Positions 1-64,000 of a stretch of DNA of 64,000 bases are shown piece by piece. Positions within the stretch are counted from its first letter, which is position 1. Each line of letters starts with the position of its first letter. Origin of the DNA: an uncultured Acidobacteriota bacterium (GTDB lineage Bacteria > Acidobacteriota > Blastocatellia > RBC074); contig CAWCKY010000006.1 in NCBI GenBank assembly GCA_963796275.1, positions 128,001 to 192,000 of the forward strand, read 5' to 3'. Below the pieces are notes generated by a model that did no database searches, was not told where the DNA came from, and worked only from the letters and a program-made list of their open reading frames with translations. A program made the position numbers and the translations under genes.

Positions 1-3000
1 GCCGCCTACCTCGGAAAGCTCGGGGTCGGGCCGGAAACGCCGGTGGGCTTTTGCCTGGAGCGTTCCCCGGAGATGGTCGTCGGTATCCTCGGCATCTTGA
101 AGGCCGGTGGAACCTACGTGCCGTTAGACCCGGCGTATCCCAAAGAGCGCCTGGCCTTCATGCTGGAAGATACTCGGACGCCGGTGATCCTGACTCAGCA
201 AAGGTTGATCGAGCACCTGCCGGAGCATCAGGCCAGTGTCGTTCGAATAGACGCAGACTGGGAATTGATGACAGAGGAGAGCGAGGCGAATCGGGCGAGC
301 GGGGCGACAGCCGGTCATCTGGCCTACATCATGTACACTTCAGGCTCGACCGGCAGGCCGAAAGGGATCGCCATCCAGCACCGGGCCATCAACCGGCTGG
401 TCTTCAATACCAACTACATCGAGATAACGCCCGAGGACCGGATGCTGCTGGCGTCGAACTCGGCCTTCGACGCGGCGACCTTCGAGTTGTGGGGCGCGCT
501 GCTGCACGGAGCGCGGCTGGTGGGGGTCAGCAGAGAGGCGGTCATATCGCCTCGGGAGCTCGCCGCCTCCATCCGCGATCACGGAATAAGCGCGATGTGG
601 CTGACGGCGGCCCTCTTCAATCAAATGACGCGCGAAGTCCCCAAGGCTTTCGGCGCCGTGAAACACCTGCTCATTGGGGGCGAGGCGCTTGATCCCCACC
701 GGGTGCGAGAGGCGCTCAAGAATGACCCGCCCGCTCGGTTGGTGAACGGGTATGGGCCGACGGAGGGCACGACCTTCACTACCTGGTACCTGGCGCAAGA
801 GGCAGCGGAAGGAGCGAGCTCCATTCCCATAGGTCGACCTATCTCTAACACGCAAACATATTTGTTGGATCGTAACCAACAGCCCACGCCCATAGGGATT
901 GCGGGCGAGTTATACATCGGTGGGGATGGACTGGCGCGCGGTTATTTCAATAGGCCGGAGCTGACGGCGGAGAAGTTCGTCCCGAATCCATATAGCGAGC
1001 GGCCGGGCGCGCGGCTCTACCGGACGGGAGACCTGGTCCGTTACCTGCCGGATGGCGCGATTGAGTTCCTGGGGCGGCTCGATCATCAGGTGAAGATCCG
1101 CGGTTTCCGCATAGAGTTGGGCGAGATCGAAGCTGCGCTCAACCGGCATCCGTCGGTGAGAGAGAGCATCGTTCTCCTCAGGGAGGATGCGCCGGGCGAG
1201 AAGCGGCTGGTAGCCTACCTCGCGACCGAGTCGAGGAAGGCGTTCACAGTTGATGATCTCCGTAACTTCTTGCGGCAAAAGTTGCCTGATTACATGACCC
1301 CTGCGGCCTTCGTGACACTGGACGCTCTACCCTTGACGCCGAACGGCAAGATAGACCGCCGCGCGCTGCCTGCGCCGGAACAGTCACGGCCGGAATTAGC
1401 CGAAGCCTTCGTCACGCCGCGTAATCAAGTGGAGGAATTGCTGGCTGCCGCCTGGGCGGACGCGCTGGAGATTGAGCGGGTAGGCGTTCACGACAACTTC
1501 TTCGACCTGGGCGGACACTCTTTGCTGGCGACGAAACTGTTCTCCCGGATCAGAGACACATTTCAAGTGGAGCTGCCGCTGGCCGCTCTGTTTGAGGCGC
1601 CCACGGTCGCCGCTCTGGCCGAGCGCATCGAATCGGCAAAGAGGACGGTGCCGGGTTCGTCGCTTCCGCCATTAACGCCCATCGTGCAGAGGGGTGGACA
1701 TCTACCACTCTCCTACACTCAGCAGCGTCTGTGGTTTTTAGATCAATTGGAGCCTGGTAGCTCCGCTTACAACATCCCGGCCGCCGTACGTCTGACCGGC
1801 GCGCTCGACACGGAAGCGTTCGCGCGAAGCTTCCACGAGATCGTGCGGCGACATGAATCGTTGCGCGCGACGTTCGTCACGGTAAATGGGCAGCCGGCGC
1901 AATTGATCGCTCCGGTGCGGCCGGTGGATTTAACCGTGACGGACTTAGGCGGGCTGACCGAAACACTGCGCGAGCTTGAGGCGGAACGGTTAGCCGACGA
2001 AGAGATGCGACGGTCGTTCGATCTGGCGCGCGGGCCTTTGATCCGCCTGCGCCTGTTGAAACTGGGCGACGAAGATCATATCGCGCTGATGACGATGCAT
2101 CACATCACCAGTGATGGCTGGTCAATCGGAATTCTCATCCGCGAATTCGCCGCGCTCTACCAAGCTTTCACAGCAGGGCTGCCGTCGCCGCTGCCTGAGC
2201 TGCCGATTCAGTATTCGGACTTCGCAGTCTGGCAGCAAGAGTGGTTGCAAGGCGAGGCGCTGAAGACTCAGCTCGCCTACTGGAAGCGGCAGCTTGCGGG
2301 TCTACCCATATTGGAATTGCCCACGGATCGCCCGCGTCCGCCCGTACAAACCTTCCGTGGAGCCTGGCAATCGTTGTTTCTGTCGGCCGAGCAGGCTGAT
2401 TCGCTCAAGGCGCTCAGCCGCCAGGAGGGCGTGACGCTGTTCATGACTTTGTTGGCGGCTTTCAAAACGTTGCTGCGCTATTACACGAATCAAGATGACA
2501 TCGTGGTTGGCTCCGACATCGCCAATCGCACCCGGCGCGAGACCGAAGATTTGATCGGGTTCTTCGTCAACCAACTGGTGCTTCGTACTGACCTGTCCGG
2601 CAATCCAACTTTCCGCGAATTGCTGGGACGGGTGCGCGAAATGACTCTGGGAGCATTCGGGCGTCAGGATATGCCGTTCGGGAAGCTGGTCGAAGAGGTG
2701 CAGCCGCACCGAGACCCGAGCCGTAACCCGCTCTTCCAGGTCATGTTCATTGTCCAAAACGCTCCGATGCCCGAGCTCAAACTTACGGGCCTGACCTTGA
2801 CGCCTCTCGACGTTAAAGGAGAGACCTCGGTGTTTGATCTGACACTGTCGTTTGTTGATGCGGAGCACGGGCGGATTCGTGTGTTGTGCCGCTATAACAC
2901 CGACTTGTTCGAACCTGCCACGATACGGCGAATGCTGGAGCGTCTGGAGGCGCTGTTGAATCGAATTGTGGCGAACCCCGAGGCGAAACTGAGCGACTTG

Positions 3001-4140
3001 AACCTTGAAGCTGAAGCGGAGAAAAAAGGGCGTCTTGGCGGCGTAGACGCGAGGCTGATGAAGCTGATGAACGTCAAGCCTAAGACCGTCAGCATGTCGC
3101 AGGAGAGATTAGTTAAGCTGAGTTACTTAAATTCGGAGCGGATGTTACCTCTGATAGCTCAACCCAGCGTGGAGGATGTTGATTTAGTAACCTGGGCTGG
3201 GTTCAACAAGGGGCTGATCGAAGAACAGTTACTGAAGCATGGCGCGATACTTTTTCGCAACTTCGGGGCCACCTCAATAACTAGATTCGAGCAATTCACC
3301 AGGACAATATCGCCCGAACTAATGCAATACGGCGAACGCTCGTCGCCACGCCACAAGGTGAGCGGCTCGATTTATACGTCGACCGACCACCCAGCCGATC
3401 AGCCCATAGTGCTTCATAACGAGCAATCGTACACGCTGAGCTGGATGATGAAACTTTGGTTCTTCTGCCTTCAGCCGGCGCAAACTGGCGGAGGCACGCC
3501 GATCGCAGACAGCCGTCTGATCTTCAGGCGTTTGAGTCCGAAGCTTGTAGAAAGGTTCGAGGAGAGACAGGTGATGTACCTGCGGAACTATGGCGCCGGC
3601 CTCGGGCTTCCCTGGCAGGAGGTTTTTCAGACCAGCGCAAAGTCGGAAGTGGAAGCGTATTGCAGCCAGGCTGGGATCAGGTACGAATGGTTGGACGGCG
3701 AGCGTCTGAGGACGCGACAGGTTCGCCCGGCGATCAGAAGACACCCGAAGACGGATGAGAAGGTGTGGTTCAACCATGCCCTCTTCTTCCACGTATCGAG
3801 CCTGGAGGCGGCTACTCGCGACTCGCTCCTGTCCGGGTTGGAGGAGGAAGACCTTCCGTTCAACACCTGTTACGGAGATGGCTCTCCCTTTGAAGCCGCG
3901 GCGCTGGGTGAAATTCGCGAAGCGTATCGGCGAGAGACGGTGAGTTTTCCCTGGCAGGCGGGGGACATCCTGATGGTAGACAACATGCTCGTGGCGCATG
4001 GGCGCGAGCCATATACAGGTCAGCGGCAGGTTGTGGTAGCCATGGCGGAGCCATTCAACACTGAGAAGGCGATCGACGCGCGTGTCTCCAACCGACGGCG
4101 GCGATGGCTTGAAACGGCGCGCAGGAGGTATCGAAGATGA
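1..4140 (+). CDS. NRPS, 5'-truncated: A(Val)-T-C(LCL)-TauD/SyrP-like Fe(II)/2-oxoglutarate hydroxylase
   Basis: Frame is open from base 1. A3 YIMYTSGSTGRPKG; code read as DAFWLGGTFK (Val); T FFDLGGHSL; C MHHITSDGWS; C-terminal TauD with LHNEQSY...VAHGREPY (H-x-E...H triad). Confidence 0.93.
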   Translation, partial: AAYLGKLGVGPETPVGFCLERSPEMVVGILGILKAGGTYVPLDPAYPKERLAFMLEDTRTPVILTQQRLIEHLPEHQASVVRIDADWELMTEESEANRASGATAGHLAYIMYTSGSTGRPKGIAIQHRAINRLVFNTNYIEITPEDRMLLASNSAFDAATFELWGALLHGARLVGVSREAVISPRELAASIRDHGISAMWLTAALFNQMTREVPKAFGAVKHLLIGGEALDPHRVREALKNDPPARLVNGYGPTEGTTFTTWYLAQEAAEGASSIPIGRPISNTQTYLLDRNQQPTPIGIAGELYIGGDGLARGYFNRPELTAEKFVPNPYSERPGARLYRTGDLVRYLPDGAIEFLGRLDHQVKIRGFRIELGEIEAALNRHPSVRESIVLLREDAPGEKRLVAYLATESRKAFTVDDLRNFLRQKLPDYMTPAAFVTLDALPLTPNGKIDRRALPAPEQSRPELAEAFVTPRNQVEELLAAAWADALEIERVGVHDNFFDLGGHSLLATKLFSRIRDTFQVELPLAALFEAPTVAALAERIESAKRTVPGSSLPPLTPIVQRGGHLPLSYTQQRLWFLDQLEPGSSAYNIPAAVRLTGALDTEAFARSFHEIVRRHESLRATFVTVNGQPAQLIAPVRPVDLTVTDLGGLTETLRELEAERLADEEMRRSFDLARGPLIRLRLLKLGDEDHIALMTMHHITSDGWSIGILIREFAALYQAFTAGLPSPLPELPIQYSDFAVWQQEWLQGEALKTQLAYWKRQLAGLPILELPTDRPRPPVQTFRGAWQSLFLSAEQADSLKALSRQEGVTLFMTLLAAFKTLLRYYTNQDDIVVGSDIANRTRRETEDLIGFFVNQLVLRTDLSGNPTFRELLGRVREMTLGAFGRQDMPFGKLVEEVQPHRDPSRNPLFQVMFIVQNAPMPELKLTGLTLTPLDVKGETSVFDLTLSFVDAEHGRIRVLCRYNTDLFEPATIRRMLERLEALLNRIVANPEAKLSDLNLEAEAEKKGRLGGVDARLMKLMNVKPKTVSMSQERLVKLSYLNSERMLPLIAQPSVEDVDLVTWAGFNKGLIEEQLLKHGAILFRNFGATSITRFEQFTRTISPELMQYGERSSPRHKVSGSIYTSTDHPADQPIVLHNEQSYTLSWMMKLWFFCLQPAQTGGGTPIADSRLIFRRLSPKLVERFEERQVMYLRNYGAGLGLPWQEVFQTSAKSEVEAYCSQAGIRYEWLDGERLRTRQVRPAIRRHPKTDEKVWFNHALFFHVSSLEAATRDSLLSGLEEEDLPFNTCYGDGSPFEAAALGEIREAYRRETVSFPWQAGDILMVDNMLVAHGREPYTGQRQVVVAMAEPFNTEKAIDARVSNRRRRWLETARRRYRR

Positions 4141-4265
4141 ATACTGGTACGAGTTTTTCTTCATATACACCTTTACACCTTGGCTGAGGACGAACAAGGC
4201 AACGAGATCATACCCATGGCGTAATAGTCAGCAACGTTATGGAAGGCAGGCGATGGAGCAGACAC

Positions 4266-7200
4266 ATGAGCGACTCGATTTTTGAATCCGACAATTTGTA
4301 TCCACTCTCACATGGTCAGCGGGCTTTATGGTTCGTGCAGCGGTTGGCGCCAAATGGCGTGGCTTACAATTTCGCGCATGCGGCCCGAATTCTGACTGAG
4401 TTGGACATCATCGCTTTTCAACGTGCGATCCAGCAGCTGGTGAGGCGCCATCCGGCGCTCAGGACGACCTTTCCCTCTCGTGACGGGGAGCCGGCGCAGC
4501 GGATTCACGATCACGCGGAGTTCCATTTCCGAACGGAGGACGCGACCTGGTGGAGCGAGGCGCAGTTGAACGAGCGCCTGGCCGAGGAGGTCTACCGCCC
4601 ATTCGATCTGGCGCACGGCCCGCTGCTGCGAATCTTCCTGTTCACTCGGTCAGATCGGGAACATGTCGTCCTCCTGGTGACTCATCACATTGTGGCCGAC
4701 CTCTGGTCGGTGGTGGTGGTTATGTCTGAGTTGGGGGCGCTGTATTCGGCGGAAAAGTCCGGCGGCCCCCTGGGTCTTTCCAGTCCGCCAACGCATGACA
4801 TCGATTATGTCCGCCAGCAAGCCGAGTCGATGACCGGCCCGGAGAGCGAACGACTCTGGGCGTTTTGGCGGAAGCAGTTGGCGGGAGCGCCGCCCATGCT
4901 GAATCTGCGGACCGACCGGCCGTGGCCGCCGGTACAAACCGACCGTGGCGCCTCCCGGACTTTGAGGCTAGGCCAGACGGTTTCGCAGGGACTTAAAGTC
5001 CTGGCCAGAACCCACGGGGCCACGCTGTTTATGACTCTGTTGGCCGCCTTTCAGGCACTGCTTCATCGTTACACCGGTCAAGAAGATATTCTGGTTGCCT
5101 CTCCGATGATCAGGAGGGGGCGTGAGGCGGCGAATCTGGTCGGTTATTTCATTAATCCGGTGGTATTGCGTGCGGATTTTTCGGGAGACCCGACATTCTC
5201 TTCCTTCCTCGATCAAGTGCGCCAGACCGCGCTCGAAGCCTTCGAACACAGCGCCTATCCGTTTCCGCTGCTCATTGAGCAATTGCAGCCGGCGCGGGAC
5301 CCTAGCCGGCCGCCGCTCGTTCAGGTCGCTTTTACCTGGCAGCAGACGACTCGCGTGATCAGCAATCAGGCGATGGCTGCATTTGCAGTGGGCGAAAAGG
5401 GAGGAGGGAGGCTGGAGTTGGGGAAGCTTCAGTTTGAATCCATGGCCCTCGAACCCCGGGTCGCTCCGTTCGAGTTGTTGTTGCTGATGGCCGAAGCGAG
5501 TGAAGAGCTGATAGCTACGGTGGAATACAACACCGACCTGTTCGACGGGGAGACGATGGAACGGATGCTGGAACATTTCCAGACTTTGCTGGAGGGAGTT
5601 GTCGCGGACCCGAAACGGCGAATCTCCGACGCCCCACTATTAACGGCGCGGGAGTTATCGCAAGAACTCGTCGAGTGGAATAGGGCCCCGGCCGAATGTA
5701 CTGAGAGTCAATGCGTCCACCAGCGGTTTGCCGAAGTGGCGGGAGAGAATCCGCAGGCCACCGCCCTGGTTAACGAAGAGGAACAGCTCACATACGAGCG
5801 GCTGAACGAGCGGGCCAATCAGTTGGCTCATTACCTGATGAAACGTGGAATCGGCCCGGAAGTATTGGTCGGCATCTGTATGGAGCGCTCAATCGATATG
5901 GCGGTGAGCTTGCTGGGAATCCTCAAAGCGGGTGGGGCATTTCTACCGCTGGACCCGGCATATCCGAGGGAACGACTGGCATACATGATCAAAGATAGCG
6001 GGGCGAGGATGATCCTGACGCGAGGAACAAGTGAAGGAGGAATATGGGAAAGAGAGGAGGAAATGATCCGGCTGGAGAGTGAATGGGAAATGATCGGGCG
6101 GGAAAGCACAGCTAATCCGGAGGCGGGGACGACGCCCGAGAATCTGGCGTATGTGATCTATACCTCGGGGTCGACGGGCCAACCCAAGGGGACGATGCTC
6201 CATCATCGAGGACTGCGCAATCTGATCGAGGGGCAAAGGCGAGGGTTCAATCCGGGAGCGAGCGATCGAATCCTGCAATTCTCATCGCTGAGCTTCGACG
6301 CGTCGGTATGGGAAGTGGTGATGGCGCTGATGGCAGGAGGAAGCCTGGTATTGCCGAGGCGGGAATCGCTGGCAACGGGTCAGGGGCTGGTGGGAACGAT
6401 GAGGGAGCAAGGGATCACGATAGTGACGTTGCCGCCGTCAATGCTGGGAGTGATGCCGGAGGAGGGGCTGCCGGAGTTACACACGATCATCACGGCGGGA
6501 GAGAAATGTCCTGGGGCATTGGCCGGGATTTGGGGGAAGGGGCGGCGATTCTTGAACGCCTACGGCCCGACGGAGACGACGGTATGCGCGTCAATATATG
6601 AGCTGGGGGAGAAGGATGTGATAGGGAGAGAGGGGAGAGGAGCTAACCCCGAAAACCCGCCGATCGGGCGGCCGATCACGAATTTCCAGATATATGTACT
6701 GGACGGGCAAATGAGACCGGCGGCGGTGGGAATAGCTGGGGAGTTGTATATCGGGGGAGTAGGGCTGGGGCGCGGGTATCTGAACCGGCCGGAGCAGACG
6801 GCCGAGAGGTTCATCCCGCATCCGTTCAGTGAGGAAGTGGGGGCGCGATTGTACAAGAGCGGGGATTTGGTGCGACGGCTGAGTGACGGGAATGTGGAAT
6901 ATGTGGGGCGAATCGATCATCAGGTAAAAGTTCGAGGATTTCGCATCGAGTTGGGAGAGATCGAAGCGGTGCTGAGAGGGCGGGAGGAAATACGTGAAGT
7001 GGTTGTGATGGCGAGGGAAGATGCGCCGGGAGAACGGCGACTGGTGGCGTATCTGGCGGTGGGACCTGGGCAATCTCCCCCGATAAACGAACTGCGAAAC
7101 CTGCTGCGGGAACGATTACCAGACTATATGGTGCCGTCGGCATTCGTCACACTGCAATCTTTCCCCTTGACCCCCAGCGGTAAAGTGGATCGCAGTGCGC

Positions 7201-7547
7201 TGCCGCCGCCCGAAAGACCGCGGCCGGAGTTGGAAGCCGGCTACGTGAGGCCCCGGAACGAGATAGAACGGGTCATCGCGGAAGTTTGGCAAAAGGTATT
7301 GGGCATTGAACGTGTGGGCGTCCATGACAACTTTTTCGACCTGGGCGGGCATTCGTTGATGCTGGCCAAGATCCACAGTCAAATGCAGGAAGTCCTCAAC
7401 CGCGAGTTACCCATGATCGAAATGTTCAAATATCCCACCATCAGTGCCCTGGCCGATTATTTGAGCCGGGAAGACGGCGGCCAACCCTCTTTTCAGATGA
7501 GTCGGCAGCGCGCCAGGGAGCAAATGGACGCGATGAATCTCGGGTAG
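4266..7547 (+). CDS. NRPS single module C-A(Phe)-T with an NRPS-to-PKS type C-terminal tail
   Basis: ATG 4266 has GGAG upstream (the track starts at 4239). C motif THHIVADLWS; code DAWTIAAVCK (GrsA-like Phe); T FFDLGGHSL; tail SRQRAREQ. Confidence 0.9.
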   Translation: MSDSIFESDNLYPLSHGQRALWFVQRLAPNGVAYNFAHAARILTELDIIAFQRAIQQLVRRHPALRTTFPSRDGEPAQRIHDHAEFHFRTEDATWWSEAQLNERLAEEVYRPFDLAHGPLLRIFLFTRSDREHVVLLVTHHIVADLWSVVVVMSELGALYSAEKSGGPLGLSSPPTHDIDYVRQQAESMTGPESERLWAFWRKQLAGAPPMLNLRTDRPWPPVQTDRGASRTLRLGQTVSQGLKVLARTHGATLFMTLLAAFQALLHRYTGQEDILVASPMIRRGREAANLVGYFINPVVLRADFSGDPTFSSFLDQVRQTALEAFEHSAYPFPLLIEQLQPARDPSRPPLVQVAFTWQQTTRVISNQAMAAFAVGEKGGGRLELGKLQFESMALEPRVAPFELLLLMAEASEELIATVEYNTDLFDGETMERMLEHFQTLLEGVVADPKRRISDAPLLTARELSQELVEWNRAPAECTESQCVHQRFAEVAGENPQATALVNEEEQLTYERLNERANQLAHYLMKRGIGPEVLVGICMERSIDMAVSLLGILKAGGAFLPLDPAYPRERLAYMIKDSGARMILTRGTSEGGIWEREEEMIRLESEWEMIGRESTANPEAGTTPENLAYVIYTSGSTGQPKGTMLHHRGLRNLIEGQRRGFNPGASDRILQFSSLSFDASVWEVVMALMAGGSLVLPRRESLATGQGLVGTMREQGITIVTLPPSMLGVMPEEGLPELHTIITAGEKCPGALAGIWGKGRRFLNAYGPTETTVCASIYELGEKDVIGREGRGANPENPPIGRPITNFQIYVLDGQMRPAAVGIAGELYIGGVGLGRGYLNRPEQTAERFIPHPFSEEVGARLYKSGDLVRRLSDGNVEYVGRIDHQVKVRGFRIELGEIEAVLRGREEIREVVVMAREDAPGERRLVAYLAVGPGQSPPINELRNLLRERLPDYMVPSAFVTLQSFPLTPSGKVDRSALPPPERPRPELEAGYVRPRNEIERVIAEVWQKVLGIERVGVHDNFFDLGGHSLMLAKIHSQMQEVLNRELPMIEMFKYPTISALADYLSREDGGQPSFQMSRQRAREQMDAMNLG
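5574..7201 (+). repeat. Phe A-domain repeat, copy 1 (near-identical to 58862-60489)
   Basis: Colinear at a constant offset of 53288 with only scattered substitutions (e.g. FDASVW vs FDAAVW). Confidence 0.92.
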
Positions 7548-7575
7548 ATGTATTGGAGTTAAAGGAGCGAATCAG

Positions 7576-14226: not shown

Positions 14227-14231
14227 TGCGT

Positions 14232-14315: not shown

Positions 14316-14335
14316 TCTATTTTCGGAGGAATGTC

Positions 14336-14941
14336 ATGGAGATAGTTATCAAACCGGCGATCAACAACGAAGAGCGCGACTCGATGTTCCGCGTACGGCA
14401 GGAAGTCTTCGAGCGCGAATGGGGGATCGGGCTCGCGCAATTGCGGGCTTATAACGAGACCGCCTTACATTTACTCGCCCTGGTCGAGCCTGGCGAATAT
14501 CCGGTCGCGGCGCTCACCGTGGTGGACACAAGCGGCGATCAACAGCTCCACGAGAGCTACCGTTTGGGCTTCGCACCGCACACTCGCGCGGCGCGCTATA
14601 CCCAACTCGCCGTGCTCAAGCCTTATCGCGGGATGGACGTCCCGGTGCGGATGATCCTCGAAGCGCATCACCGCTTCGTCGTCCCCGGCCGGTTCGATTA
14701 CACCTGGCTGTTATTCGACGCACGGCACGCCGCGTCGTCGTCGCTCTGCCAGTGGCTCGCTTTTTCCGCGAGCGAGCAAGCTTTCGCGTCCGAATACGGC
14801 TTCAGCCGCTCGTTGGTAAGAGACGAGCGCACGCAGCGCTGCAAACGAGCCATCCGGCGAGTAGAGCGGTATTTTGGGCAGAGCGCGTGGCCTTTATTGC
14901 TTGCGAAATCGCAGCGCGAGCAGGTCGGATCATCTAGATAA
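14336..14941 (+). CDS. GNAT-fold acyltransferase-like protein (FeeM/acyl-ACP-dependent N-acyltransferase-like)
   Basis: GGAGG RBS; N-terminal FRVRQEVFERE and motif-A-like TQLAVLKPYRG. The family assignment rests on motif resemblance only. Confidence 0.65.
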   Translation: MEIVIKPAINNEERDSMFRVRQEVFEREWGIGLAQLRAYNETALHLLALVEPGEYPVAALTVVDTSGDQQLHESYRLGFAPHTRAARYTQLAVLKPYRGMDVPVRMILEAHHRFVVPGRFDYTWLLFDARHAASSSLCQWLAFSASEQAFASEYGFSRSLVRDERTQRCKRAIRRVERYFGQSAWPLLLAKSQREQVGSSR

Positions 14942-18532: not shown

Positions 18533-18569
18533 CGATCTTCAATCATTGATCTCGGAGGAAGGAAGAACG

Positions 18570-25947: not shown

Positions 25948-25980
25948 CCGAACAATTTTTGCCTGACCGCTTAGGTGAGT

Positions 25981-31900: not shown

Positions 31901-32045
31901 GTGCCTGGAAACGCTGGCCGAAGCCGACCGCCGCCGCCGGGGCATGAAAGAGGAAGAATTCAAAGCTGTCAGCCGTCAGAAATTGCGAAATATCAGGCGG
32001 AAAACGATGGACAGCACCCAATCGAGTAATGGTGATGAAAGGTAA
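25981..32045 (+). CDS. NRPS C(DCL)-A(Asn)-T-E-C(DCL); one apparent frameshift near 30350 joins track ORFs 25975..30561 and 30402..32045
   Basis: YPLSPLQQGMLFH and YHHLLLDGWS (DCL); code DATKIGEVGK (Asn); T GGDSI; E HHLAIDG/LEGHGRE/RTVGWFT. Adding one G at 30350-30352 restores SPRGSRRYPLEIN, which aligns with the paralogous E domains. Terminal C YHHLLLDGWS. Confidence 0.88.
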
Positions 32046-32052
32046 AGCATAT

Positions 32053-39829: not shown

Positions 39830-39915
39830 GGCCTGGGTAAGGGCCGTAGAAATTGGAAATGGGAGAAAAACTTTTTCCATTTCGCGGTCCGCTGAAGGTT
39901 GGGGTGAAGAAAATT

Positions 39916-41948: not shown

Positions 41949-42036
41949 TTGGCTTCTTTGGAAAGCCCATAGAAGATCAGTCGGTCTGGTGGCGAAAGCA
42001 GCGCGAACTAACAGTTCGCCAAACATCAAGGTAGTT

Positions 42037-51139: not shown

Positions 51140-51144
51140 ACCAA

Positions 51145-54100: not shown

Positions 54101-57100
54101 TGACGGGAATTTGGACCGTCGTCCTCGGACTTGATCGGGTAGGTGTCCATGACAACTTCTTCGAGTTGGGGGGGCATTCATTAGTTGCTATCCGGATTAT
54201 CTCCCGCGTTCGCGAAGCCTTTAAGGTGGAGCTAGCTCTGCGCGACCTGTTTGAAATACCTACTGTTGCCGGCCTGACCAAAAAGATCGAGACGCTGATG
54301 AGGGTCGATCAAGGTCTGCAGGCGCCTCCAATTGAGCGCGTTACACGGGACGGAAAGTTACCGCTTTCATTCGGCCAACAGCGGCTGTGGTTCCTCGACA
54401 AACTGGCGCAAGGTAGTTCTTTCTATAATGTTTCATCCCTATTCCGGGTAAATGGAAAATTGGATGTGGCAGCTATGGAGTGGAGTCTGAACGAGATCGT
54501 GCGGCGCCACGAAGTGCTGAGGACCACTTTTTCGAGCGTGGGCGGGCAACCGATTCAGGCCATCTCGCCGGCCGTGTCGCTGACGTTACCATTGATTGAT
54601 TTGACTGAGTTGTCGGAAGGCGATCGCGATGCAGAAGGGCGGCGGTTGACTGTTGAAAATACGAACCTCCCTTTTGATTTAGCTCGAGGCCCATTGTTCA
54701 GAGCTACCCTGCTACGTCTTGGAGCAGAGGATCACATATTTCTCTTTACCACGCATCACATTATCTTCGATGGCTGGTCCTCAGGAGTTCTCGTTCGGGA
54801 GTTTTCAACCCTCTACAAGGTTTTTACCGAAGGGAGTTCTTCACCGCTTCCTGATTTGCCGCTTCAGTATGCCGATTTTGCCCATTGGCAGCGCCACTGG
54901 GTGCAGGGCGAGGTTTTAGAAAATCTATTGTCGTACTGGAAAACGCAATTAAGTGGAAGCACACCCGTTTTGGAATTGCCGACGGATCGGCCTCGACCGG
55001 CATTTCAAACTTTTCGAGGCGCCACGCAACCGATAAATCTTCCCAAGGGATTGAGCGAGTCATTAAAAGAGCTGAGTCGTTGTGAGGGCGCGACCTTGTT
55101 CATGACGCTGCTGGCGGCTTTCCAGACCTTACTACATCGTTACAGTGGTCAGAACGATATCCTGGTGGGTTCTCCCATTGCCGGCCGCACCCAAGCGCCG
55201 ATTGAGGATCTCATCGGGTTTTTTGTGAATACCTTGGTATTACGTACTGACTTCTCCGGCGATCCGACATTTCAAGAAATGTTGGGAGAGGTACGCAAGG
55301 TAACGCTTGAGGCGTATGCCCATCAGGATTTGCCTTTTGAACAGTTGGTGGACGCCTTGCAACCCGACCGGGCTTTGAGCCATTCACCTTTATTTCAAGT
55401 CATGTTCGTTCTCCAGAACACGACGCGTCAGACATTAGAGTTGCCGGGTTTGACTTTGAGTAGTTTGCAGACAGAAGGAAGAACCGCGAAGTTTGATTTG
55501 ACCTTGTACTTGACCGACACCGAGCGAGGATTAAGCGGAATTCTGGAATACAACACCGACCTGTTTGACCCGGCCACGGCCACTCAGATGGAGAGACATT
55601 TCCAAACCTTGCTGGCCCACATCATTGCTGACCCGCAGCAGCGGATTTCAAACTTGACGCTGATGGCGGAACCAGAACAGCGGCAATTGATCGTCGAGTG
55701 GAATGACACCGAAAGCGATTACCCACTGGATCAGTGCATCCATCAATTGTTTGAAGCTCAGGTGGCGCGAACGCCTGAGGCCATTGCGGCAGTATTTGAG
55801 GATGAGCAATTAACCTATAACGAACTGAGCCAACGTGCCAATCAATTGGCGCGTCACCTGCAGAAGCTTGGGGTGGGGCCCGCGGCCCTCGTCGGAATTT
55901 GCGTGGAGCGCAGCCCGGAGATGCTGATAGGGCTTTTGGGGATTCTCAAAGCCGGAGGCGCTTACGTGCCTCTCGACCCGGCGTATCCGAAGGAGCGCTT
56001 AGCCTTCATGTTGCAGGATACTCAGGCACCGGTTTTGTTGACGAACCACCGGCTGGTTGAAAGGATGATCGAGGATCGAGGATCGAAGGTCGAGGGTAGT
56101 GATTCTCAATCATCGAATATCACGTCCATCCTCGATCATAGTTGCCAGGTGGTCTGCTTGGACAACGATTGGCAGACGATCTCACAAAATAGCCGGCAAA
56201 ACCTGGTCTGTGAGGTGAGGGCTGACAACCTGGCATACGTCATATATACGTCTGGCTCGACAGGTAAGCCCAAAGGGGTTCAAATTCCCCATCGTGCCGT
56301 GGCCAACTTCCTGGAATCCATGCGCAAGCAGCCTGGGCTGACAGCCATGGATACACTTCTTTCCGTCACCACCTTATCCTTCGATATTGCCGCGCTCGAG
56401 CTTTTCTTACCTATTACCGTGGGCGCTCGTGTGGTTGTGGTCAGTCGCGAAGTCGCCGCTGATGGAGACCGATTGAAGGAACTGATCGCTTCTGGTGTTA
56501 CGGTCATGCAAGCGACTCCGGCTACCTGGAGACTGCTTCTGGAAGCCGATTGGCAGGGCAGCAAACGACTGAAAATACTCTGCGGCGGAGAAGCGCTTTC
56601 GCGAGAATTGGCGGATCACTTGTTAGAGATGGGTCTTTCTCTGTGGAATTTATATGGCCCTACGGAAACCACCATCTGGTCCGCTGTTAATGAAGTCGGA
56701 CCCGGTCATGGCCTTGTCTCTATCGGACGTCCGATCCCCAACACGCAGATTTATATATTAGATCGCCATTTGCAGCCTCTACCAATCGGTGTGCCCGGCG
56801 AACTACACATTGGCGGCGACGGCCTTTCTGAAGGCTATCTCAAACGACCCGAGCTGACGGCCGAGAAGTTCGTCCCGAATCCTTATAGCCGCGAGCCGGG
56901 GGCGCGCCTGTATAAGACCGGAGATATGGCCCGCTTTCTCTCCAATGCCGATATCGAAGTCCTTGGCCGTATCGACCATCAGGTGAAGATTCGAGGCTTT
57001 CGCATTGAATTGGGAGAGATAGAAGCCACGCTAAGCCAACACCCGGCTGTTCAGCATGTTGTCGTCCTGGCTCAGGAGGATAAGCCTGGCGACTTGGCAT

Positions 57101-60100
57101 CCCATCCGGGTGGGATCGGAGCAAGCAAGCGCCTGGTGGCCTATGTCGTTCCAAATCAGGAATCAGTGCCCACTCCTGGTGAGTTGCGTAGCTTTCTTAA
57201 GGAAAAGCTGCCCGAGTACATGACCCCCTCGGCCTTTTTGATATTGGAGAAGTTGCCTTTGACACCCAACGGCAAGGTAGATCGGCATGCGCTACCTAAG
57301 GACGACGGAATCATATCGGACCAGAAAGGTTTAATAGCGCCGCGCAGCCCGGTGGAAGAGATGCTGGCAGAAATTTGGACGGAGGTACTTGGGCTTGAGC
57401 AGTTCAGCGTTCACGATAATTTTTTCGAGCTAGGAGGGCATTCCTTGCTGGCAACTCGAAGTGATCTCCCGGCTGCGCGATACTTTCCAAGTCGATTTGC
57501 CTGTACGCCGAATTTTTGAAGCCTCTACCATAGCCGGGCTGGCCGAGCGCATTGAAATGGTCTTGCGCGCAGGTGAGGATTCGCAGAATTCACCGATTGA
57601 GCGCGTTTCAAGAGACCAGGATTTGCCCTTATCCTTTGCCCAACAGCGCTTGTGGTTTATCGATCAGTTAGACCGCGGCAATCCCGCATATAATTTTCCC
57701 ATTGCCGTTCGCCTGACGGGCTCACTCAACGTGGCGGCGCTAGAACGAAGCCTTAATGAAATCGTGAGGCGTCATGAAGCGCTACGCACGATCTATAGTG
57801 AGCTCAAGGGCCAACCGGTCCAGATTATCGCTACCATTCTAACCCTGCCTCTACCGGTGCTGGATCTCAGGGCGTTGTCTGAGAGCAACCGAGAGGCGCA
57901 AGCCATGCGGTTGGCAGTGGAAGAGAGCAGGCGGCCTTTTAACCTCGCCCAAGGCCCATTGTTACGCGTTGGCTTATTGAAATTGGACGACGAGGAGCAC
58001 GTGCTGTTGCTGACTGTGCATCATATCGTCACTGACGGTTGGTCCATGGGGGTGCTCTTCCGGGAAATCGCAACGCTTTATGAAGCCTACGCAACTGGAA
58101 TCCCCTCCCGATTGCCTGAGCTTCTGATTCAGTATGCGGACTTTGCTCATTGGCAACGGCAATGGCTCCAGGACGAAGTTTTGCAGACGCAGCTTTCCTA
58201 CTGGAAGCAACAACTCAAAGGCATCCCTGCCATCTTAGAGCTGCCTACAGACTATCCGCGCCCAGCAGTTCGAACTTTCCGAGGCGCGCGTCAAGCACTG
58301 GCGCTGCCCAAGGCACTTTCCGAGGCGCTTAAAAGTTTGAGCCGCCAGGAAGGCGTTACTCTATTCATGACTCTGATGGCAGCATTCCAGACCTTGCTGT
58401 ACCGTTATACGGAACAAGAAGACATCCTCGTAGGCACGCCAATCGCCAATCGCAATCGGACCGAGATAGAAGGCCTTATTGGGTTCTTCGTCAATACCTT
58501 ACTCCTACGCGCTCATTTTTTCAGCAATCTGAATTTCCAGGAATTGTTGGCTCAGGTCCGCGAAACGGCGCTGGGAGCCTATGCTCATCAAGACCTGCCT
58601 TTCGAAAAGTTGGTGGAGGAGCTGGACCCGCAACGGGATTTAAGCAGCACACCACTGTTTCAGGTGATGTTCGTTCTTCAGAATGCTCCGCGGGAAGCGT
58701 TGGATGTACCCGGTTTAAAGTTGAGCATGCTGCCGTTTGATAATGAGCTGGCAAAATTTGACTTGACGCTATCGCTGGTCGATCGATCGGACGGATTGAC
58801 CGGGTCGTTTGAGTATAATGCCGATCTTTTCGACGCCACCACCATCAGCCGGATGATCGAGCATTTCCAGACTTTGCTGGAGGGAGTTGTCGCGGACCCG
58901 AAACGGCGAATCTCCGACGCCCCACTATTAACGGCGCGGGAGTTATCGCAAGAACTCGTCGAATGGAATAGCGCCCCGGCCGAATGTACCGAGAGTCAAT
59001 GCGTCCACCAGCGGTTTGCCGAAGTGGCGGGAGCGAATCCGCAGGCCACCGCCCTGGTTTACGAAGAGGAACAGCTCACATACGACCGGCTGAACGAGCG
59101 GGCCAATCAGCTGGCTCATTACCTGATGAAACGTGGAATCGGCCCGGACGTATTGGTCGGCATCTGCATGGAGCGCTCAATCGATATGGCGGTGAGCTTG
59201 CTGGGAATCCTCAAAGCGGGTGGGGCATTTCTACCGCTGGACCCGGCATATCCGAGCGAACGTCTGGCATACATGATCAAAGATAGCGAGGCGAAGGTGA
59301 TCCTGACGCGAGGAACGAGTGAAGGACGAATATGGGAAAGAGAGGAGGAAATGATCCGGCTGGAGAGTGAATGGGAAATGATCGGGCGGGAAAGCACAGC
59401 CAATCCGGAGGCGGGGGCGACGCCCGAGAATCTGGCGTATGTGATCTATACCTCGGGGTCGACGGGCCAACCCAAGGGGACGATGCTCCATCATCGAGGC
59501 CTGCGCAATCTGATCGAGGGGCAAAGGCGAGGGTTCAATCCGGGAGCGAGCGATCGAATCCTGCAATTCTCATCGCTGAGCTTCGACGCGGCGGTATGGG
59601 AAGTGGTGATGGCGCTGATGGCGGGAGGAAGCCTGGTATTGCCGAGGCGGGAATCGCTGGCAACGGGTCAGGGACTGGTGGGGACGATGAGGGAGCAAGG
59701 GATCACGATAGTGACGTTGCCGCCGTCAATGCTGGGAGTGATGCCGGAGGAGGGGCTGCCGGAGTTACACACGATCATCACGGCGGGAGAGAAATGTCCT
59801 GGGGCATTGGCCGGGATTTGGGGGAAGGGGCGGCGATTCTTGAACGCCTACGGCCCGACGGAGACGACGGTATGCGCGTCAATATATGAGCTGGGGGAGA
59901 AGGATGTGATAGGGAGAGAGGGGAGAGGAGCTAACCCCGAAAACCCGCCGATCGGGCGGCCGATCACGAATTTCCAGATATATGTACTGGACGGGCAAAT
60001 GAGACCGGCGGCGGTGGGAATAGCTGGGGAGTTGTATATCGGGGGAGTAGGGCTGGGGCGCGGGTATCTGAACCGGCCGGAGCAGACGGCCGAGAGGTTC

Positions 60101-60922
60101 ATCCCGCATCCGTTCAGTGAGGAAGTGGGGGCGCGATTGTACAAGAGCGGGGATTTGGTGCGACGGCTGAGTGACGGGAATGTGGAATATGTGGGGCGAA
60201 TCGATCATCAGGTAAAAGTTCGAGGATTTCGCATCGAGTTGGGAGAGATCGAAGCGGTGCTGAGAGGGCGGGAGGAAATACGTGAAGTGGTTGTGATGGC
60301 GAGGGAAGATGCGCCGGGAGAACGGCGACTGGTGGCGTATCTGGCGGTGGGACCTGGGCAATCTCCCCCGATAAACGAACTGCGAAACCTGCTGCGGGAA
60401 CGATTACCAGACTATATGGTGCCGTCGGCATTCGTCACCCTGCAATCTTTCCCCTTAACCCCCAGCGGTAAAGTGGATCGCAGTGCGCTTCCGAAACCGG
60501 AATACACCCGATCGGATTTGGGCGTTGAATTCGCCTCACCACGCACACCGATGGAAGAGCAGGTGGCCGAGATTTGGACTCAGCTTCTTGGCGTTGATCG
60601 GGTCGGAATCTATGACAACTTTTTTGAATTGGGCGGTCATTCGTTGTTGGCCACCAAAGTTGTTTCCCGCGTTCGCGAGACCTTTGAAGTCGAGTTGCCC
60701 GTGCGCAGCCTTTTTGAGACGCCGAGGATGGTGGATTTGACGACAACGATATCGCAACTGCAACTCGCCACGGGAACAGACGGCTCGCGAATAGAAAGAT
60801 CAGAACGGGGAGAGAAAAACATCGAGGAGCTTGTCGCCGAATTGGCCCATCTATCGGATGACGATGTGCAGGCTATGCTTGCTGAGGAAATGAATTTAGC
60901 CGGAGAAATCTATAATGACTGA
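51145..60922 (+). CDS. NRPS C(DCL)-A(Ile)-T-C-A(Gly)-T-C-A(Phe)-T; one apparent frameshift (~57460) inside the second T domain
   Basis: HHHILLDGWS; codes DAFFLGVTFK (Ile), DILQLGLIWK (Gly), DAWTIAAVCK (Phe); removing one base restores GGHSLLATRVISR; docking tail LSDDDVQAML. Confidence 0.88.
52638..53765 (+). repeat. Ile A-domain repeat, copy 1 (near-identical to 62480-63607; 5' part also matches 1-535)
   Basis: Constant offset of 9842 to copy 2, with few substitutions. Confidence 0.92.
56065..56139. repeat. GAGGATC-heptamer hairpin inserted in frame in the Gly A domain
   Basis: Perfect 12-bp arms atgatcgaggat / atcctcgatcat; encodes MIEDRGSKVEGSDSQSSNITSILDH between NHRLVER and SCQVVCLD. 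Confidence 0.85.
58862..60489 (+). repeat. Phe A-domain repeat, copy 2
   Basis: Matches 5574-7201. Confidence 0.92.
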
Positions 60923-63900
60923 TATCGCCAGGACAATCTCTTCTCTGTCTCCGGAGAAACGGGCGCTGCTGGCGCTCAAACTCAAGGAGCGAGGCAGCCA
61001 GTTCAATACGTTTCCTCTCTCATTCGCCCAGCAGCGGTTGTGGTTCCTCGACCAGTTGACGCCCGGAAGCCCTGTTTACAACATTCACGCCGCGGTACGG
61101 CTCACCGGCAGCCTCGACTCGTGGGCTCTGGAGCGATGCTTTGACGAGATCGTCCGCCGCCACGAAGCTCTGCGGACCACATTTACCATCGTGGATGGAA
61201 ATCCAGCGCAAATTGTAGGAAGGCATCGACCAGTCAGACTGAGGCTGGTGGATTTGAGCGAACTGCCGCCTGATGAAAGCGAGGCGCAAGCTACACAACT
61301 GATCGCTGAGGAGAGCCAGTGGCCCTTCGATCTTACATCCGGCCCGCTTCTGCGAGTGACGTTGTACCGGATGAGCGAGGTGGATCATGTTCTGCTCTTT
61401 GGCGTCCATCACATTATCTCCGACGGATGGTCTACAGGCGTACTGATCCGGGAGGTGGCGGCTTTGTATAGCGCTTTTTTACTTGGCAAACCCTCGCCGC
61501 TCGGCGAACTGCCGATTCAGTACGCCGATTATGCCCGGTGGCAGCGCAAACATTTGCAAGGCGAGAGGATCGATTCGCTGCTCGATTATTGGAAGCGTCG
61601 CCTGGAAGGATACTCGCAGGTGTTGGATCTGCCGACCGATCGGCCTCGCCCGGCTGTGGCTTCTTTCCGGGGAGCGCATCGGTCGATAGCGCTGTCCAGG
61701 AAGCTTTCAGATGCGGTCAAAGCTCTGGGTCTGCAAGAAAAAGCCACGCCATTTATGACGCTCCTGGCGGCCTTACAAACGCTGCTCTATCGCTACACCG
61801 GACAGGAGGATATTTGCGTCGGGTCGCCCATCGCCGGCCGCAATCGAGGAGAGACCGAAGGACTGATCGGATTTTTTGTCAACACGCTGGTCATTCGCAC
61901 CGATCTGGGCGGCGATCCGAGTTTCTGCGATCTGTTGGGGCGAGTGCGTGAGAGCGCTTTAGGCGCTTACGCGCATCAGGAACTGCCTTTTGAGACGCTG
62001 GTGGAGAAGATCCAGCCGGAACGAAGCATGAGCCACACTCCAATCTTCCAGGTGGCTTTCGCTTATCAAAACGTGTTTACGGAAGCGTTAGAACTGCCGG
62101 GGCTGACGCTACGCCGCGTGGAACTGGAGCATCGGACGACGAAGTTCGATCTGACTGTGGCCGTGACTGAAACGCCGGATGGGTTGAACGTTTCAGTCGA
62201 GTACAACACCGATCTACTCAACGACGATACCATCGCCCGTCTGCTCGAACATTATCGAATTCTGTTGGAAGACGCCGTCGCATATCCGGATCGTCGTATT
62301 TCAGATTTGCCCCTCCTGAATGAGGCGGAGCAACGCCTGCTCTTGTCCACGTGGAATGATACGAGGACGGAGTATCCGCGCGACAAATGCGTGCATGAGT
62401 TGTTCGAGGCGCAGGTGGAGAGATGCCCCGACACGATTGCGTTGGTGGTCGAGGAGGAGCAGCTTACCTACCGGGAGTTGAACCGCCGGGCCAATCAACT
62501 CGCCGCTTACCTCGGAAATCTGGGAGTCGGGCCGGAAACGCCGGTGAGCTTTTGCCTGGAGCGTTCCCCGGAGATGGTCGTCGGGATTCTCGGCATCTTG
62601 AAGGCCGGCGGAACCTATGTGCCGTTAGACCCGGCATATCCCAAAGAGCGCCTGGCCTTCATGCTCGAGGATACCCGGACGCCGGTGATCCTGGTTCAGC
62701 AAAAGCTGATCGAGCGCCTGCCGGAGCATCAGGCTCGTGTCGTTCGAATAGACGCAGACTGGGAATTGATGGCACGGGAGAGCGAGGCGAACCGGGCGAG
62801 CGGGGCGACAGCCGGTCATCTGGCCTACGTTATGTACACCTCGGGCTCGACCGGCAAGCCGAAAGGGATCGCCATCCCGCACCGGGCCATCAACCGGCTG
62901 GTCTTCAATACCAACTACATCGAGATGACGTCCGAGGACCGGATGGCATTGGCGTCGAATTCCGCCTTCGACGCGGCGACCTTCGAGTTGTGGGGCGCGC
63001 TGCTGCACGGGGCGCGGCTGGCGGGGATCAGCAGAGATGTGGCGTTGTCGCCCGCCGATCTGGCGACGGAGATTCGCGCGCAGGGGATCAGCGCGATGTT
63101 TTTGACCACGGCTCTGTTCAATCAAATGGCGCGCGAAGTCCCGGCGGCGTTCGGGTCGGTGAGGAGCGTGTTGTTCGGCGGCGAAGCGGTAGACCTCAAT
63201 TTGGTGAAAGAGGTTCTGAAGCATAACCCTCCGGCACGATTGCTACATGTCTATGGGCCGACCGAGAGCACAACCTTCACCACCTGGTATCCGGTGCAAG
63301 GGCTGCCGGAAGGGGCCGTAACCGCGCCGATTGGCCGCCCGCTGGCCAACACGCAGGTCTACTTGCTGGATGGTAGTTTACAACCCGCGCCGGTGGGCGT
63401 CGGGGGCGAGTTATACATCGGCGGCGATGGACTGGCGTGGGGATATTTCATGCGGCCGGAGCTGACGGCTGAGAAGTTCATTCCGAATCCGTTCAGCCAG
63501 GAACCGGGAGCGCGGCTCTATCGGACTGGAGACCTGGCGCGTTACTGGCCGGATGGCGCCATCGAGTTCCTGGGGCGGCTCGACCAACAGGTGAAGATTC
63601 GCGGCTTTCGCATCGAATTGACGGAGATCGAAGCGGTATTGGCTCAACACCCGACCGTCCGGGAAGCCGCCGTGTTGGCTCGCGAGGACGTGGCCGGCGA
63701 GAAACGACTGGTGGCGTACGTCGCGCTCGATCCTATCGAGAGGGGTGCCGCGCCAACCGGCATAGAACTGAGAAGCTACTTACGGCAAAAGCTACCTGAG
63801 TATATGACACCTTCCGTCTTCGTCGAGTTGGACGCCCTGCCGCTGACGCCAAACGGGAAGGTGGATCGCCGGGCGCTGCCCGCACCCGACCCGGCTAACA

Positions 63901-64000
63901 TGGCGCGACCCGAGTTGGCGGGAGTCTATGTCGCGCCTCGAACCCTGGTCGAAGAGACGCTGGCCGGAATCTGGTCGAAGGTTGTGGGCGTCGCTCAAGT
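60915..64000 (+). CDS. NRPS, 3'-truncated: C(LCL)-A(Ile)-T(start); missing from the ORF track because it has no stop codon in the window
   Basis: ATG overlaps the previous stop (ATGACTGA). Translates MTDIARTISSLSPEKRALL...FPLSFAQQRLWFLDQ, then GVHHIISDGW and an Ile-type A domain; the frame is kept to base 64000. Confidence 0.92.
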   Translation, partial: MTDIARTISSLSPEKRALLALKLKERGSQFNTFPLSFAQQRLWFLDQLTPGSPVYNIHAAVRLTGSLDSWALERCFDEIVRRHEALRTTFTIVDGNPAQIVGRHRPVRLRLVDLSELPPDESEAQATQLIAEESQWPFDLTSGPLLRVTLYRMSEVDHVLLFGVHHIISDGWSTGVLIREVAALYSAFLLGKPSPLGELPIQYADYARWQRKHLQGERIDSLLDYWKRRLEGYSQVLDLPTDRPRPAVASFRGAHRSIALSRKLSDAVKALGLQEKATPFMTLLAALQTLLYRYTGQEDICVGSPIAGRNRGETEGLIGFFVNTLVIRTDLGGDPSFCDLLGRVRESALGAYAHQELPFETLVEKIQPERSMSHTPIFQVAFAYQNVFTEALELPGLTLRRVELEHRTTKFDLTVAVTETPDGLNVSVEYNTDLLNDDTIARLLEHYRILLEDAVAYPDRRISDLPLLNEAEQRLLLSTWNDTRTEYPRDKCVHELFEAQVERCPDTIALVVEEEQLTYRELNRRANQLAAYLGNLGVGPETPVSFCLERSPEMVVGILGILKAGGTYVPLDPAYPKERLAFMLEDTRTPVILVQQKLIERLPEHQARVVRIDADWELMARESEANRASGATAGHLAYVMYTSGSTGKPKGIAIPHRAINRLVFNTNYIEMTSEDRMALASNSAFDAATFELWGALLHGARLAGISRDVALSPADLATEIRAQGISAMFLTTALFNQMAREVPAAFGSVRSVLFGGEAVDLNLVKEVLKHNPPARLLHVYGPTESTTFTTWYPVQGLPEGAVTAPIGRPLANTQVYLLDGSLQPAPVGVGGELYIGGDGLAWGYFMRPELTAEKFIPNPFSQEPGARLYRTGDLARYWPDGAIEFLGRLDQQVKIRGFRIELTEIEAVLAQHPTVREAAVLAREDVAGEKRLVAYVALDPIERGAAPTGIELRSYLRQKLPEYMTPSVFVELDALPLTPNGKVDRRALPAPDPANMARPELAGVYVAPRTLVEETLAGIWSKVVGVAQ
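62480..63607 (+). repeat. Ile A-domain repeat, copy 2
   Basis: Matches 52638-53765. Confidence 0.92.

Follow-up and report, generated by a model that had tools for sequence, protein, structure and literature searches.

Several described systems resemble parts of the locus reported here, a hybrid non-ribosomal peptide synthetase-polyketide synthase (NRPS-PKS) gene cluster of an uncultured Acidobacteriota bacterium. The stretch analysed (the window) comprises 64,000 nucleotides, positions 128,001 to 192,000 of contig CAWCKY010000006.1 (G000:C6:128001-192000, where G000 is the source genome, 9.46 Mb in 7 contigs). The cyanochelin B producer, Leptolyngbya sp. NIES-3755, and its plasmid (AP017310.1) are named in passages of bioRxiv 10.64898/2026.07.27.740964; the last 14 kb of the plasmid record, over which the comparison was made, has the same E/DCL/TauD/interface(LPSLCAD)-A(DLTKIGHVG)-T-E layout, with TauD 52-58% identical. 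Unlike cyanochelin B, the cluster has five interface modules (one for Glu and one of DFWHFGQVD code), three PKS modules, and carbamoyl and ureidoalanine genes, and it has no receptor match nearby.

Zwittermicin A, from Bacillus cereus/thuringiensis plasmids, is also the product of a hybrid NRPS-PKS, and its zmaTUV genes encode an OTCase-like protein, SbnA and SbnB in the same order (50/38/29% identity), a trio that makes β-ureidoalanine according to passages of PMC9586298. The shared part is this cassette only, and the adenylation (A) domain codes and the architecture differ. In the statine- and Ahppa-type acyl peptides (ahpatinins, thalassospiramides, tasiamides), the same γ-amino-β-hydroxy unit arises from Phe and a KS-AT-KR module behind it, and where KR-DH comes after an amino acid the residue becomes vinylogous. 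Those peptides, likened to the present line by description only, are short and neutral, whereas the product predicted here has ∼17 residues and is acidic and hydroxylated. Lipodiscamides, which are sponge lipodepsipeptides, are likewise lipopeptides with ureidoalanine, but their dehydronorvaline, citrulline and dilactone ring, as described in passages of PMC12426817, do not fit the predicted backbone. Finally, PavB of the pavettamine pathway is a DUF3326 protein with a tested role, being needed with PavA for a lysine/cadaverine condensation product; passages of bioRxiv 10.64898/2026.06.12.731819 place it outside any NRPS, whereas the DUF3326 found here lies within a split A domain.

We read the present cluster as a partly non-collinear hybrid line that would make an exported, linear, acidic lipopeptide of ∼17 residues, a model to which we assign a probability of about 0.6. 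Nearly every enzyme type in it is known, and its novelty lies in the combination rather than in a new kind of system; what sets it apart is the predicted start outside the gene order, the interface module for Glu, the dead E domain that follows a KR-DH PKS, the monomer linked to DUF3326 and an end of the line that has no thioesterase.

Organisation of the cluster and its A-domain codes

Pfam matches place NRPS and PKS genes in an uninterrupted plus-strand run across the window, with a tailoring block in the middle. The run holds 11 A domains, the first of which begins just before base 1, and two PKS modules, in agreement with the at least 11 NRPS and two PKS modules that had been counted in the original prediction. 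The full cluster covers ∼115 kb on a single strand and contains 17 A domains (NRPS modules) and three PKS modules. Its limits are a TPR gene at ∼-7.1 kb and, ∼43.9 kb beyond the window end, a stand-alone thioesterase at +107.9 kb (coordinates outside 1-64000 are C6 positions minus 128000). The absence of a start or an end in 64 kb, as originally stated, is true of the gene order; the cluster is nevertheless finite, and its biosynthetic start is read inside the window (4239-14226). C-A-T and KS-AT-ACP modules with intact catalytic motifs occur together in one cluster, as expected for a cis-AT hybrid NRPS-PKS.

Nine-residue A codes were read at positions anchored on the GrsA/1AMU numbering. Along the window these are DAFWLGGTF, DAWTIAAVC, DAKDLGVVD, DATKIGEVG, DLTKVGHVG (twice), DFWNIGMVH, DAFFLGVTF, DILQLGLIW, DAWTIAAVC and DAFFLGVTF. 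They give Val, Phe, Glu, Asn, Asp, Asp, Thr, Ile, Gly, Phe and Ile, with E domains after the Asn and Thr modules in a quick C-domain tree, and all 11 earlier assignments stand. In the Glu code, position 239 falls at an alignment gap and was read by eye, and the orthologue gives the same DAKDLGVVD. Phe follows from the match to GrsA and Asp from the near-identical code on the cyanochelin B plasmid; the remaining codes we take to specify Val, Glu, Asn, Thr, Ile and Gly. Six further codes lie past the window: Asp (67585), DFWHFGQVD (79865), DATQIALID (83058), DFFHHGGVN (86221), Val (92562) and DFFHHGGIN (98788). An ∼80-residue repetitive insertion is present within the DFFHHGGVN A domain (G000:C6:214531-214800), and in the orthologous cluster of a related genome, G020, several A domains are likewise broken up or displaced by short repeat insertions.

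A proposed start of the assembly line

Signatures in the KS domains, C domains and docking tails suggest a non-collinear start inside the window. Read in gene order, Val would be followed by Phe, PKS2 and Glu, which strands the interface-Glu module without an active C domain and PKS1 without a donor; another order was therefore sought. The KS of PKS2 (KS2, motif VDTACSSS) groups, with support of 100, with two KSs that follow acyl-ACPs, separately from the 19 other rows of the KS tree (KS1, KS3 and KSs downstream of peptidyl carriers). The C domain of g3, denoted C*, falls in a separate C-domain clade; PDB sequence matches did not give its class. Four of its best 12 matches are gene-initial relatives in G020 and in a second related genome, G014, and in the loci compared the other eight (8/8) all follow a GLDS-type ACP like that of PKS2. 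The C-terminal tail of g3 is of the kind seen on the modules preceding PKS1 in G020 and G014, and docking tails match pairwise along the line. KS types, C* relatives and the g3 tail together point to the order PKS2, Phe, PKS1, Val, Glu. The step from Val to Glu that bypasses the Phe module and the reducing PKS, already drawn in the original prediction, is borne out by the KS type and by G014, in which the interface-Glu gene comes next after a C-TauD gene, with no more than two short open reading frames (ORFs) between the two and no Phe/PKS2/GNAT cassette. The AT motif of PKS2 is VPYH, and the GNAT gene beside it accompanies PKS2 in G020 and was not found in G014.

In our model, PKS2 would build or extend a reduced acyl chain, with the FeeM-like GNAT perhaps moving acyl groups on or off, and C* would transfer this chain on to Phe. 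PKS1 would then extend Phe with malonate and reduce the product to a statine-like unit, followed by Val. The terminal C domain of g2 would partner the catalytically dead interface domain of g6 while the fused TauD β-hydroxylates Glu, and PKS3 would add malonate with reduction and probably dehydration. D-Asn, two β-OH-Asp, D-allo-Thr, Ile, Gly, Phe, Ile and D-β-OH-Asp would come next, and the last residues would be a hydroxylated monomer of the DFWHFGQVD type, ureidoalanine (candidate code DATQIALID), a DUF3326-linked monomer, Val and the DUF3326-linked monomer again. NodU would put a carbamate on one of the hydroxyls. This domain logic agrees with the backbone of the original prediction, Val-(OH)Glu-ketide-D-Asn-(OH)Asp-(OH)Asp-D-allo-Thr-Ile-Gly-Phe-Ile.

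Near the upstream limit of the cluster, at the site of the first C*-A(Phe)-T gene of G020, lies a 1.26 kb tandem duplication (G000:C6:118380-120914) that is unique in the genome and has no long ORFs. The TPR gene beside it is without an N-terminal part that is present in G020.

Interface modules, predicted β-hydroxylation and PKS3

Five modules begin with a C-like domain in which L[PS]x[LI]CAD replaces HHxxxD, and these domains fall in one clade; the modules are those for Glu (14967) and Asp (32122, 43155 and 66226) and that with the DFWHFGQVD code (78458). In the line, the gene before each of them ends in an active C domain, in two cases with TauD fused to it; the third TauD is stand-alone, and all three keep the HxE...H triad. 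No informative solved relative of TauD was found. A C-like domain without HHxxxDG heads A-T, with an active C domain and a TauD enzyme just upstream, the arrangement by which interface-domain systems were reportedly defined by Reitz and colleagues in 2019. The five interface-type modules and three TauD enzymes lead us to predict β-hydroxylation, that of Glu being deduced from the position of its module. Passages of PMC12971057 distinguish the hydroxylase subtypes IBH, TBH and CyanoBH, and antiSMASH 8 lists interface domains alongside siderophore-associated hydroxylases (passages of PMC12230676).

In PKS3, the DH His and Asp are kept in 25/25 aligned proteins. The E domain that ends this gene lacks the second His in all 15 of the closest proteins, itself included, and in 7/10 more distant ones, and a DCL-type C domain comes next.

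Two observations elsewhere touch on interface modules. At G020:C13:19319-30190, two consecutive genes have a common docking tail at the N-terminus, and each terminates in a C domain of the type that serves the following interface module; they are probably alternative modules giving congeners. An unannotated hybrid cluster on a plasmid of Nostoc sp. UHCC 0926 (L207; NZ_CP117772.1, 350-391 kb) has interface-Asn and interface-Asp modules and two TauD domains.

Predicted ureidoalanine cassette and DUF3326-linked monomer

SbnA and SbnB, both of which exceed the NCBIfam cut-offs, are joined by a second, cluster-borne OTCase homologue in a zmaTUV-type cassette; for the remaining OTCase/ATCase homologues of the genome, identity is 29-31%. 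On plasmids, the OTCase-like protein finds its best matches in 40 Bacillus and 3 Streptomyces records. Codes of the type DA[ST]QIA[LF][IV]D occur in 5/12 loci from OTCase-positive genomes and in 0/18 from OTCase-negative ones (30 loci, each from a different genome out of 46 with a match, the genomes being kin), and this co-occurrence makes DATQIALID a candidate ureidoalanine code. It is partly like the zwittermicin-cluster code DAQDIAAVD. In G020 and G014, a module of the DATQIALID clade replaces the Asn module. The cassette lends support to the ureidoalanine chemistry foreseen earlier, although the candidate A module sits outside the window; of the tailoring genes, the window itself contains the NodU-type carbamoyltransferase, the OTCase-like gene, those for SbnA and SbnB, and two TauD domains.

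DUF3326 is located within the split A domain of the last gene, and another genome, G002, in which only the DUF3326 end of the cluster is present, shows the same shortened A domain behind DUF3326. Among 80 metagenome DUF3326 loci, 27 have a DFFHHGG-type A domain and 48 have any A-domain match; a scan of genome contigs with DUF3326 gave four loci, three of them cyanobacterial and without NRPS genes. The predicted DUF3326 structure (pLDDT 87) had no Foldseek match at E ≤0.001 (best Z 6.3, root-mean-square deviation 3.5 over 138 residues), and no fold was assigned. The C domain ahead of the split A (96022) is nearest to starter C domains, which hints at a second acylation.

At G339:C2 near 2163-2224 kb and at G235:C13:31-93 kb, in genomes belonging to another family of this class, a distinct cluster family likewise combines OTCase, SbnA and SbnB with TauD and interface modules; there the interface modules have Gln-type and DASQIAL[IV]D codes, and a PKS follows a Tyr-type module.

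Proposed release and export

The end of the line has no in-line thioesterase or reductase release domain, only the stand-alone thioesterase. The last gene ends instead in T and an E-like domain (HHLAVDVVSA) without a docking tail, an ending shared by G020 and G002, and this terminal domain most likely releases the chain. MacAB-type ABC and MFS pumps, the only pumps present and both of export type, would carry the product out.

Frameshifts

Seven frameshifts interrupt modules of the cluster (30351, 47467, 49079, 57456, 68501, 82356 and 85558). Six of these are at RGATCY-type sites: four at GGATCT (two being copies in one 2.2 kb repeat), one at AGA(A)TCT and one seven bases from the start of GGATCC. 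There are 64 RGATCY sites in 116 kb of cluster, and ∼0.7% of positions would be equally close to one. Genome-wide, the ratio GAGAATCT/GAGATCT is 0.84 and GAGAATCC/GAGATCC is 0.47, against 0.12-0.14 for two control contexts. Short-read contigs are without the extra base at 47465 in 3/3 public runs and without that at 49079 in 2/3, the third run having no depth there; no short-read row for 30351 was among the matches listed. The g8 orthologue in G020 is a single frame of 2058 residues. We would attribute the frameshifts to methylation-linked long-read error, and from their motif linkage and the short-read contigs the cluster is probably intact. The 'broken' appearance of the assembly would then be mostly motif-linked sequencing error. 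RGATCY sites are depleted across G000 and one-base insertions at them look systematic, so a broken look is probably to be expected of many more genes in this assembly.

Alternative readings

A competing account of the order, which we consider unlikely, has PKS2 extending Phe to a 4-amino-5-phenylpentanoyl unit, either in the main chain, with GNAT replacing a C domain, or as a side branch joined to an amine by GNAT or by the starter-type C domain of the last module, while the main chain starts from a module lost in G000. It draws on the position of g3 directly before PKS2 in both G000 and G020, on the FeeM-like character of GNAT, on the C domain before the split A, and on the separate C*-A-T gene ahead of PKS1 in G020 and G014, where G000 has the tandem duplication instead. 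What speaks for the non-collinear order is that KS2 is not of the PCP-accepting type, that the relatives of C* take acyl-ACP, and that an in-chain Phe-PKS2 step would leave interface-Glu without an active C domain. Several points nevertheless weigh against our model. PKS2 has neither a loading domain nor a recognisable docking tail at its end, and the cluster has no FAAL, the sole FAAL match of the genome being on another contig. G020 conserves the gene order of Phe module then PKS2 and has two C*-Phe modules, one ahead of each PKS; G000 is without the first and may therefore have lost the true starter. The C-domain tree is a quick tree of 77 rows from which halves of frameshift-split C domains were excluded. 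Four A codes have no substrate assignment, and the ureidoalanine code rests on related genomes: 7/12 OTCase-positive loci are without it, G207 has none in 119 kb, and the zwittermicin A domains are not the nearest relatives of the DATQIALID domain. Domain content, codes, orthology and the error origin of at least two frameshifts are observed directly, whereas module order and substrates we infer from sequence. Decay of the cluster into pseudogenes, to which the seven frameshifts (with 57456 away from any RGATCY site), the missing first module and the apparently 5'-truncated TPR gene might be ascribed, is very improbable given that the errors concentrate at one motif with a genome-wide excess, that two of the extra bases are absent from short-read contigs and that catalytic motifs are retained.

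As to the role of the product, three interface-Asp modules are present where cyanochelin-type metallophores call for two or more β-OH-Asp modules, and the three β-OH-Asp, if formed, would make an iron site. A metallophore in which these residues and β-OH-Glu chelate Fe(III) as in cyanochelins, with a receptor encoded elsewhere, would also suit the shared interface/TauD/Asp layout, an Nramp gene ∼3 kb upstream of the cluster in G000 and, in G020, a CarboxypepD_reg and outer-membrane barrel gene 4 kb downstream. Barrel genes are, however, common in G000 (112 matches), and no match to a TonB-dependent receptor (PF00593) lies within 58 kb of the cluster in this one genome of the cluster family, the nearest being 85 kb upstream and 58 kb downstream; five of six large NRPS loci on other contigs of G000 have a PF00593 match within ∼10 kb. 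Similar hydroxylases occur in the non-metallophores turnercyclamycin and the syringomycin family (passages of PMC12971057). With exporters, no receptor nearby and such hydroxylases, we think it more likely that the compound is secreted, binds metal and acts as an antagonist (an antimicrobial or an inhibitor of proteases, the activity being a guess) than that it is an iron-uptake siderophore, which we regard as unlikely. Whatever its role, the product may belong to a family known from another producer and overlooked here, as MIBiG and NORINE were outside the comparison. Precedents exist for every sub-pathway, and among 618 Acidobacteriota genomes seven clusters group with MIBiG entries, only two of the references being named (passages of PMC13712943); yet seven of 3,865 clusters is a very low base rate, and we think it distinctly improbable. 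None of the best 120 matches of the PKS3 KR-DH-ACP region is named as a characterised pathway gene beyond automatic labels, and the 13 at ≥62% are metagenome or unnamed records; the best 120 of PKS2 carry automatic labels or are distant PKSs, with named cultured producers at only ∼39-53%. Plasmid searches gave matches that share single cassettes only, and the literature covered, from which most subscription journals are missing, contained nothing on the cluster family. The earlier claim of an undescribed product accordingly agrees with protein, plasmid and literature searches but falls short of proof; in our judgement the family is very probably undescribed.

Relatives and A-domain exchange

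The OTCase-like gene has matches in 20/401 genomes of the class, G000 included, and the PKS3 DH region in 3/87 genomes of the order: G000, G020 and G014, which represent three genera of one family. G020 (contigs C60 and C13) has the whole cluster in the same order and G014 its first half. When two same-genus genomes (completeness 87% and 73%) were searched at the DNA level, with 38.5 kb of the window as query, the matches were only of a generic NRPS/PKS kind, and an orthologous cluster was not among them. Beyond these, 13 more PKS3 homologues at 62-93% were present among the best 120 matches in sequence collections, and the close homologues with names are labelled Acidobacteria or Blastocatellales.

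In the quick tree, C, E and interface domains pair one-to-one among the orthologous clusters, and C-type domains are 62-84% identical to G020 at the 13 positions compared. The A domains are 69-86% identical at the seven positions where the codes agree fully or nearly so, and 42-53% identical at the six where the code has changed. Within G000, the Asp, Phe, Val and Ile A domains exist as 95-99.8% identical copies, which reflect recent gene conversion or module duplication. From the conserved C scaffold, the code-dependent A identity and the internal copies we therefore conclude that A domains have been exchanged while the scaffold around them stayed fixed.

Soils contain Acidobacteriota in abundance, and although these bacteria have many clusters, few of their metabolites are confirmed (passages of PMC13712943). 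The complete, contiguous cluster offers natural controls in its orthologue differences (A-domain swaps, gain or loss of the PKS2-GNAT cassette) and small testable enzymes: a candidate glutamyl β-hydroxylase, a candidate ureidoalanine code, DUF3326 and the terminal E-like domain. In its widest form, which is tentative and less likely than not, our proposal is that uncultured soil Acidobacteriota make a compound family of undescribed chemistry. A loader-less reducing PKS and a FeeM-like GNAT would serve as an out-of-order lipid starter; interface-directed β-hydroxylation would act on Glu, then ketide-extended and dehydrated beside a conserved dead epimerase, and on a non-Asp residue; a DUF3326-made monomer would load on a split A domain; release would be E-like; and statine-like and vinylogous units would point to a protease-directed agent.

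Features of the cluster, with positions in the window unless a contig is given
Feature	Position	Strand	Remarks
PKS1: KS-AT(malonyl)-KR-ACP, no loading domain	G000:C6:121606-126360 (-6394 to -1640)		Outside window, just upstream of g2; KS type and AT motif
g2: C-A(Val)-T-C-TauD	1..4140	+	Gene starts 1.7 kb before window; TauD HxE...H motif intact
g3: C*-A(Phe)-T	4239..7547	+	C* of the kind following acyl-ACP donors; predicted first amino-acid module
g4, PKS2: KS-AT-DH-ER-KR-ACP	7576..14226	+	Fully reducing, non-hybrid KS; predicted acyl-tail (starter) synthase
GNAT-fold protein	14336..14941	+	Resembles FeeM-type acyl-ACP N-acyltransferases; Atlas look-alikes
g6: interface-type domain-A(Glu)-T	14967..18272	+	LPSICAD replaces HHxxxD; predicted β-hydroxy-Glu
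g7, PKS3: KS-AT(malonyl)-KR-DH-ACP-E0	18546..25808	+	KR before DH; E without second His
g8: DCL-A(Asn)-T-E-DCL	25975..32045	+	One apparent frameshift near 30351
g9: interface-A(Asp)-T-C	32029..36906	+	
NodU/CmcH-type carbamoyltransferase	36943..38757	+	Pfam; NCBIfam NodU score under cut-off
OTCase-like carbamoyltransferase, SbnA, SbnB	38813..41948	+	Predicted diaminopropionate and ureidoalanine supply (zmaTUV-like)
Stand-alone TauD-family putative β-hydroxylase	41869..43089	+	
g10: interface-A(Asp)-T-C-A(Thr)-T-E	43122..51139	+	Apparent frameshifts 47467 and 49079
g11: DCL-A(Ile)-T-C-A(Gly)-T-C-A(Phe)-T	51145..60922	+	Apparent frameshift near 57456, within T domain
g13: C-A(Ile)-T-C	60915..64000	+	Extends 1.65 kb beyond window
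Interface-A(Asp)-T-E; Ig-like protein; DCL-TauD; two family-less membrane proteins	G000:C6:194187-235914, first part		Downstream of window
Interface-A(DFWHFGQVD)-T-C-A(DATQIALID)-T-C-A(DFFHHGGVN)-T; two MacB; C-A(Val)-T	Same, second part		Downstream of window
TubC_N-C-split A(DFFHHGGIN)-T-terminal E-like domain	Same, third part		C of starter type; DUF3326 in the cut of A
MFS, MbtH fusion, MacA, ABC ATPase, stand-alone thioesterase	Same, last part		Downstream of window
Near-identical A-domain-sized repeat	33253-35225 / 44283-46255		
Near-identical A-domain-sized repeat	5562-7205 / 58850-60493		
Near-identical A-domain-sized repeat	52592-53800 / 62434-63642		
Near-identical A-domain-sized repeat	G000:C6:127700-129193 / 220381-221874		
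Near-identical A-domain-sized repeat	G000:C6:208765-210961 / 211967-214164		

Other genes of the cluster and genome

Two membrane-protein-like ORFs (G000:C6:204676-206342) lie between the DCL-TauD gene and the next interface module and were not seen in G020. Neither has a Pfam or NCBIfam match; an HTTM lead for the first is weak (score 0.87, 13% of members), and carboxylation chemistry is therefore not claimed. A secreted-looking protein with choice-of-anchor D Ig-like domains is encoded inside the NRPS operon (G000:C6:198838-200406) and has a counterpart of 65% identity in the same place in G020. Elsewhere in G000 there are at least six more large NRPS loci (C1 1186-1217 kb; C4 20-47 and 130-191 kb; C2 2-15 kb; C7 431-438 and 1053-1071 kb), one of which has an open frame of 9,359 residues.

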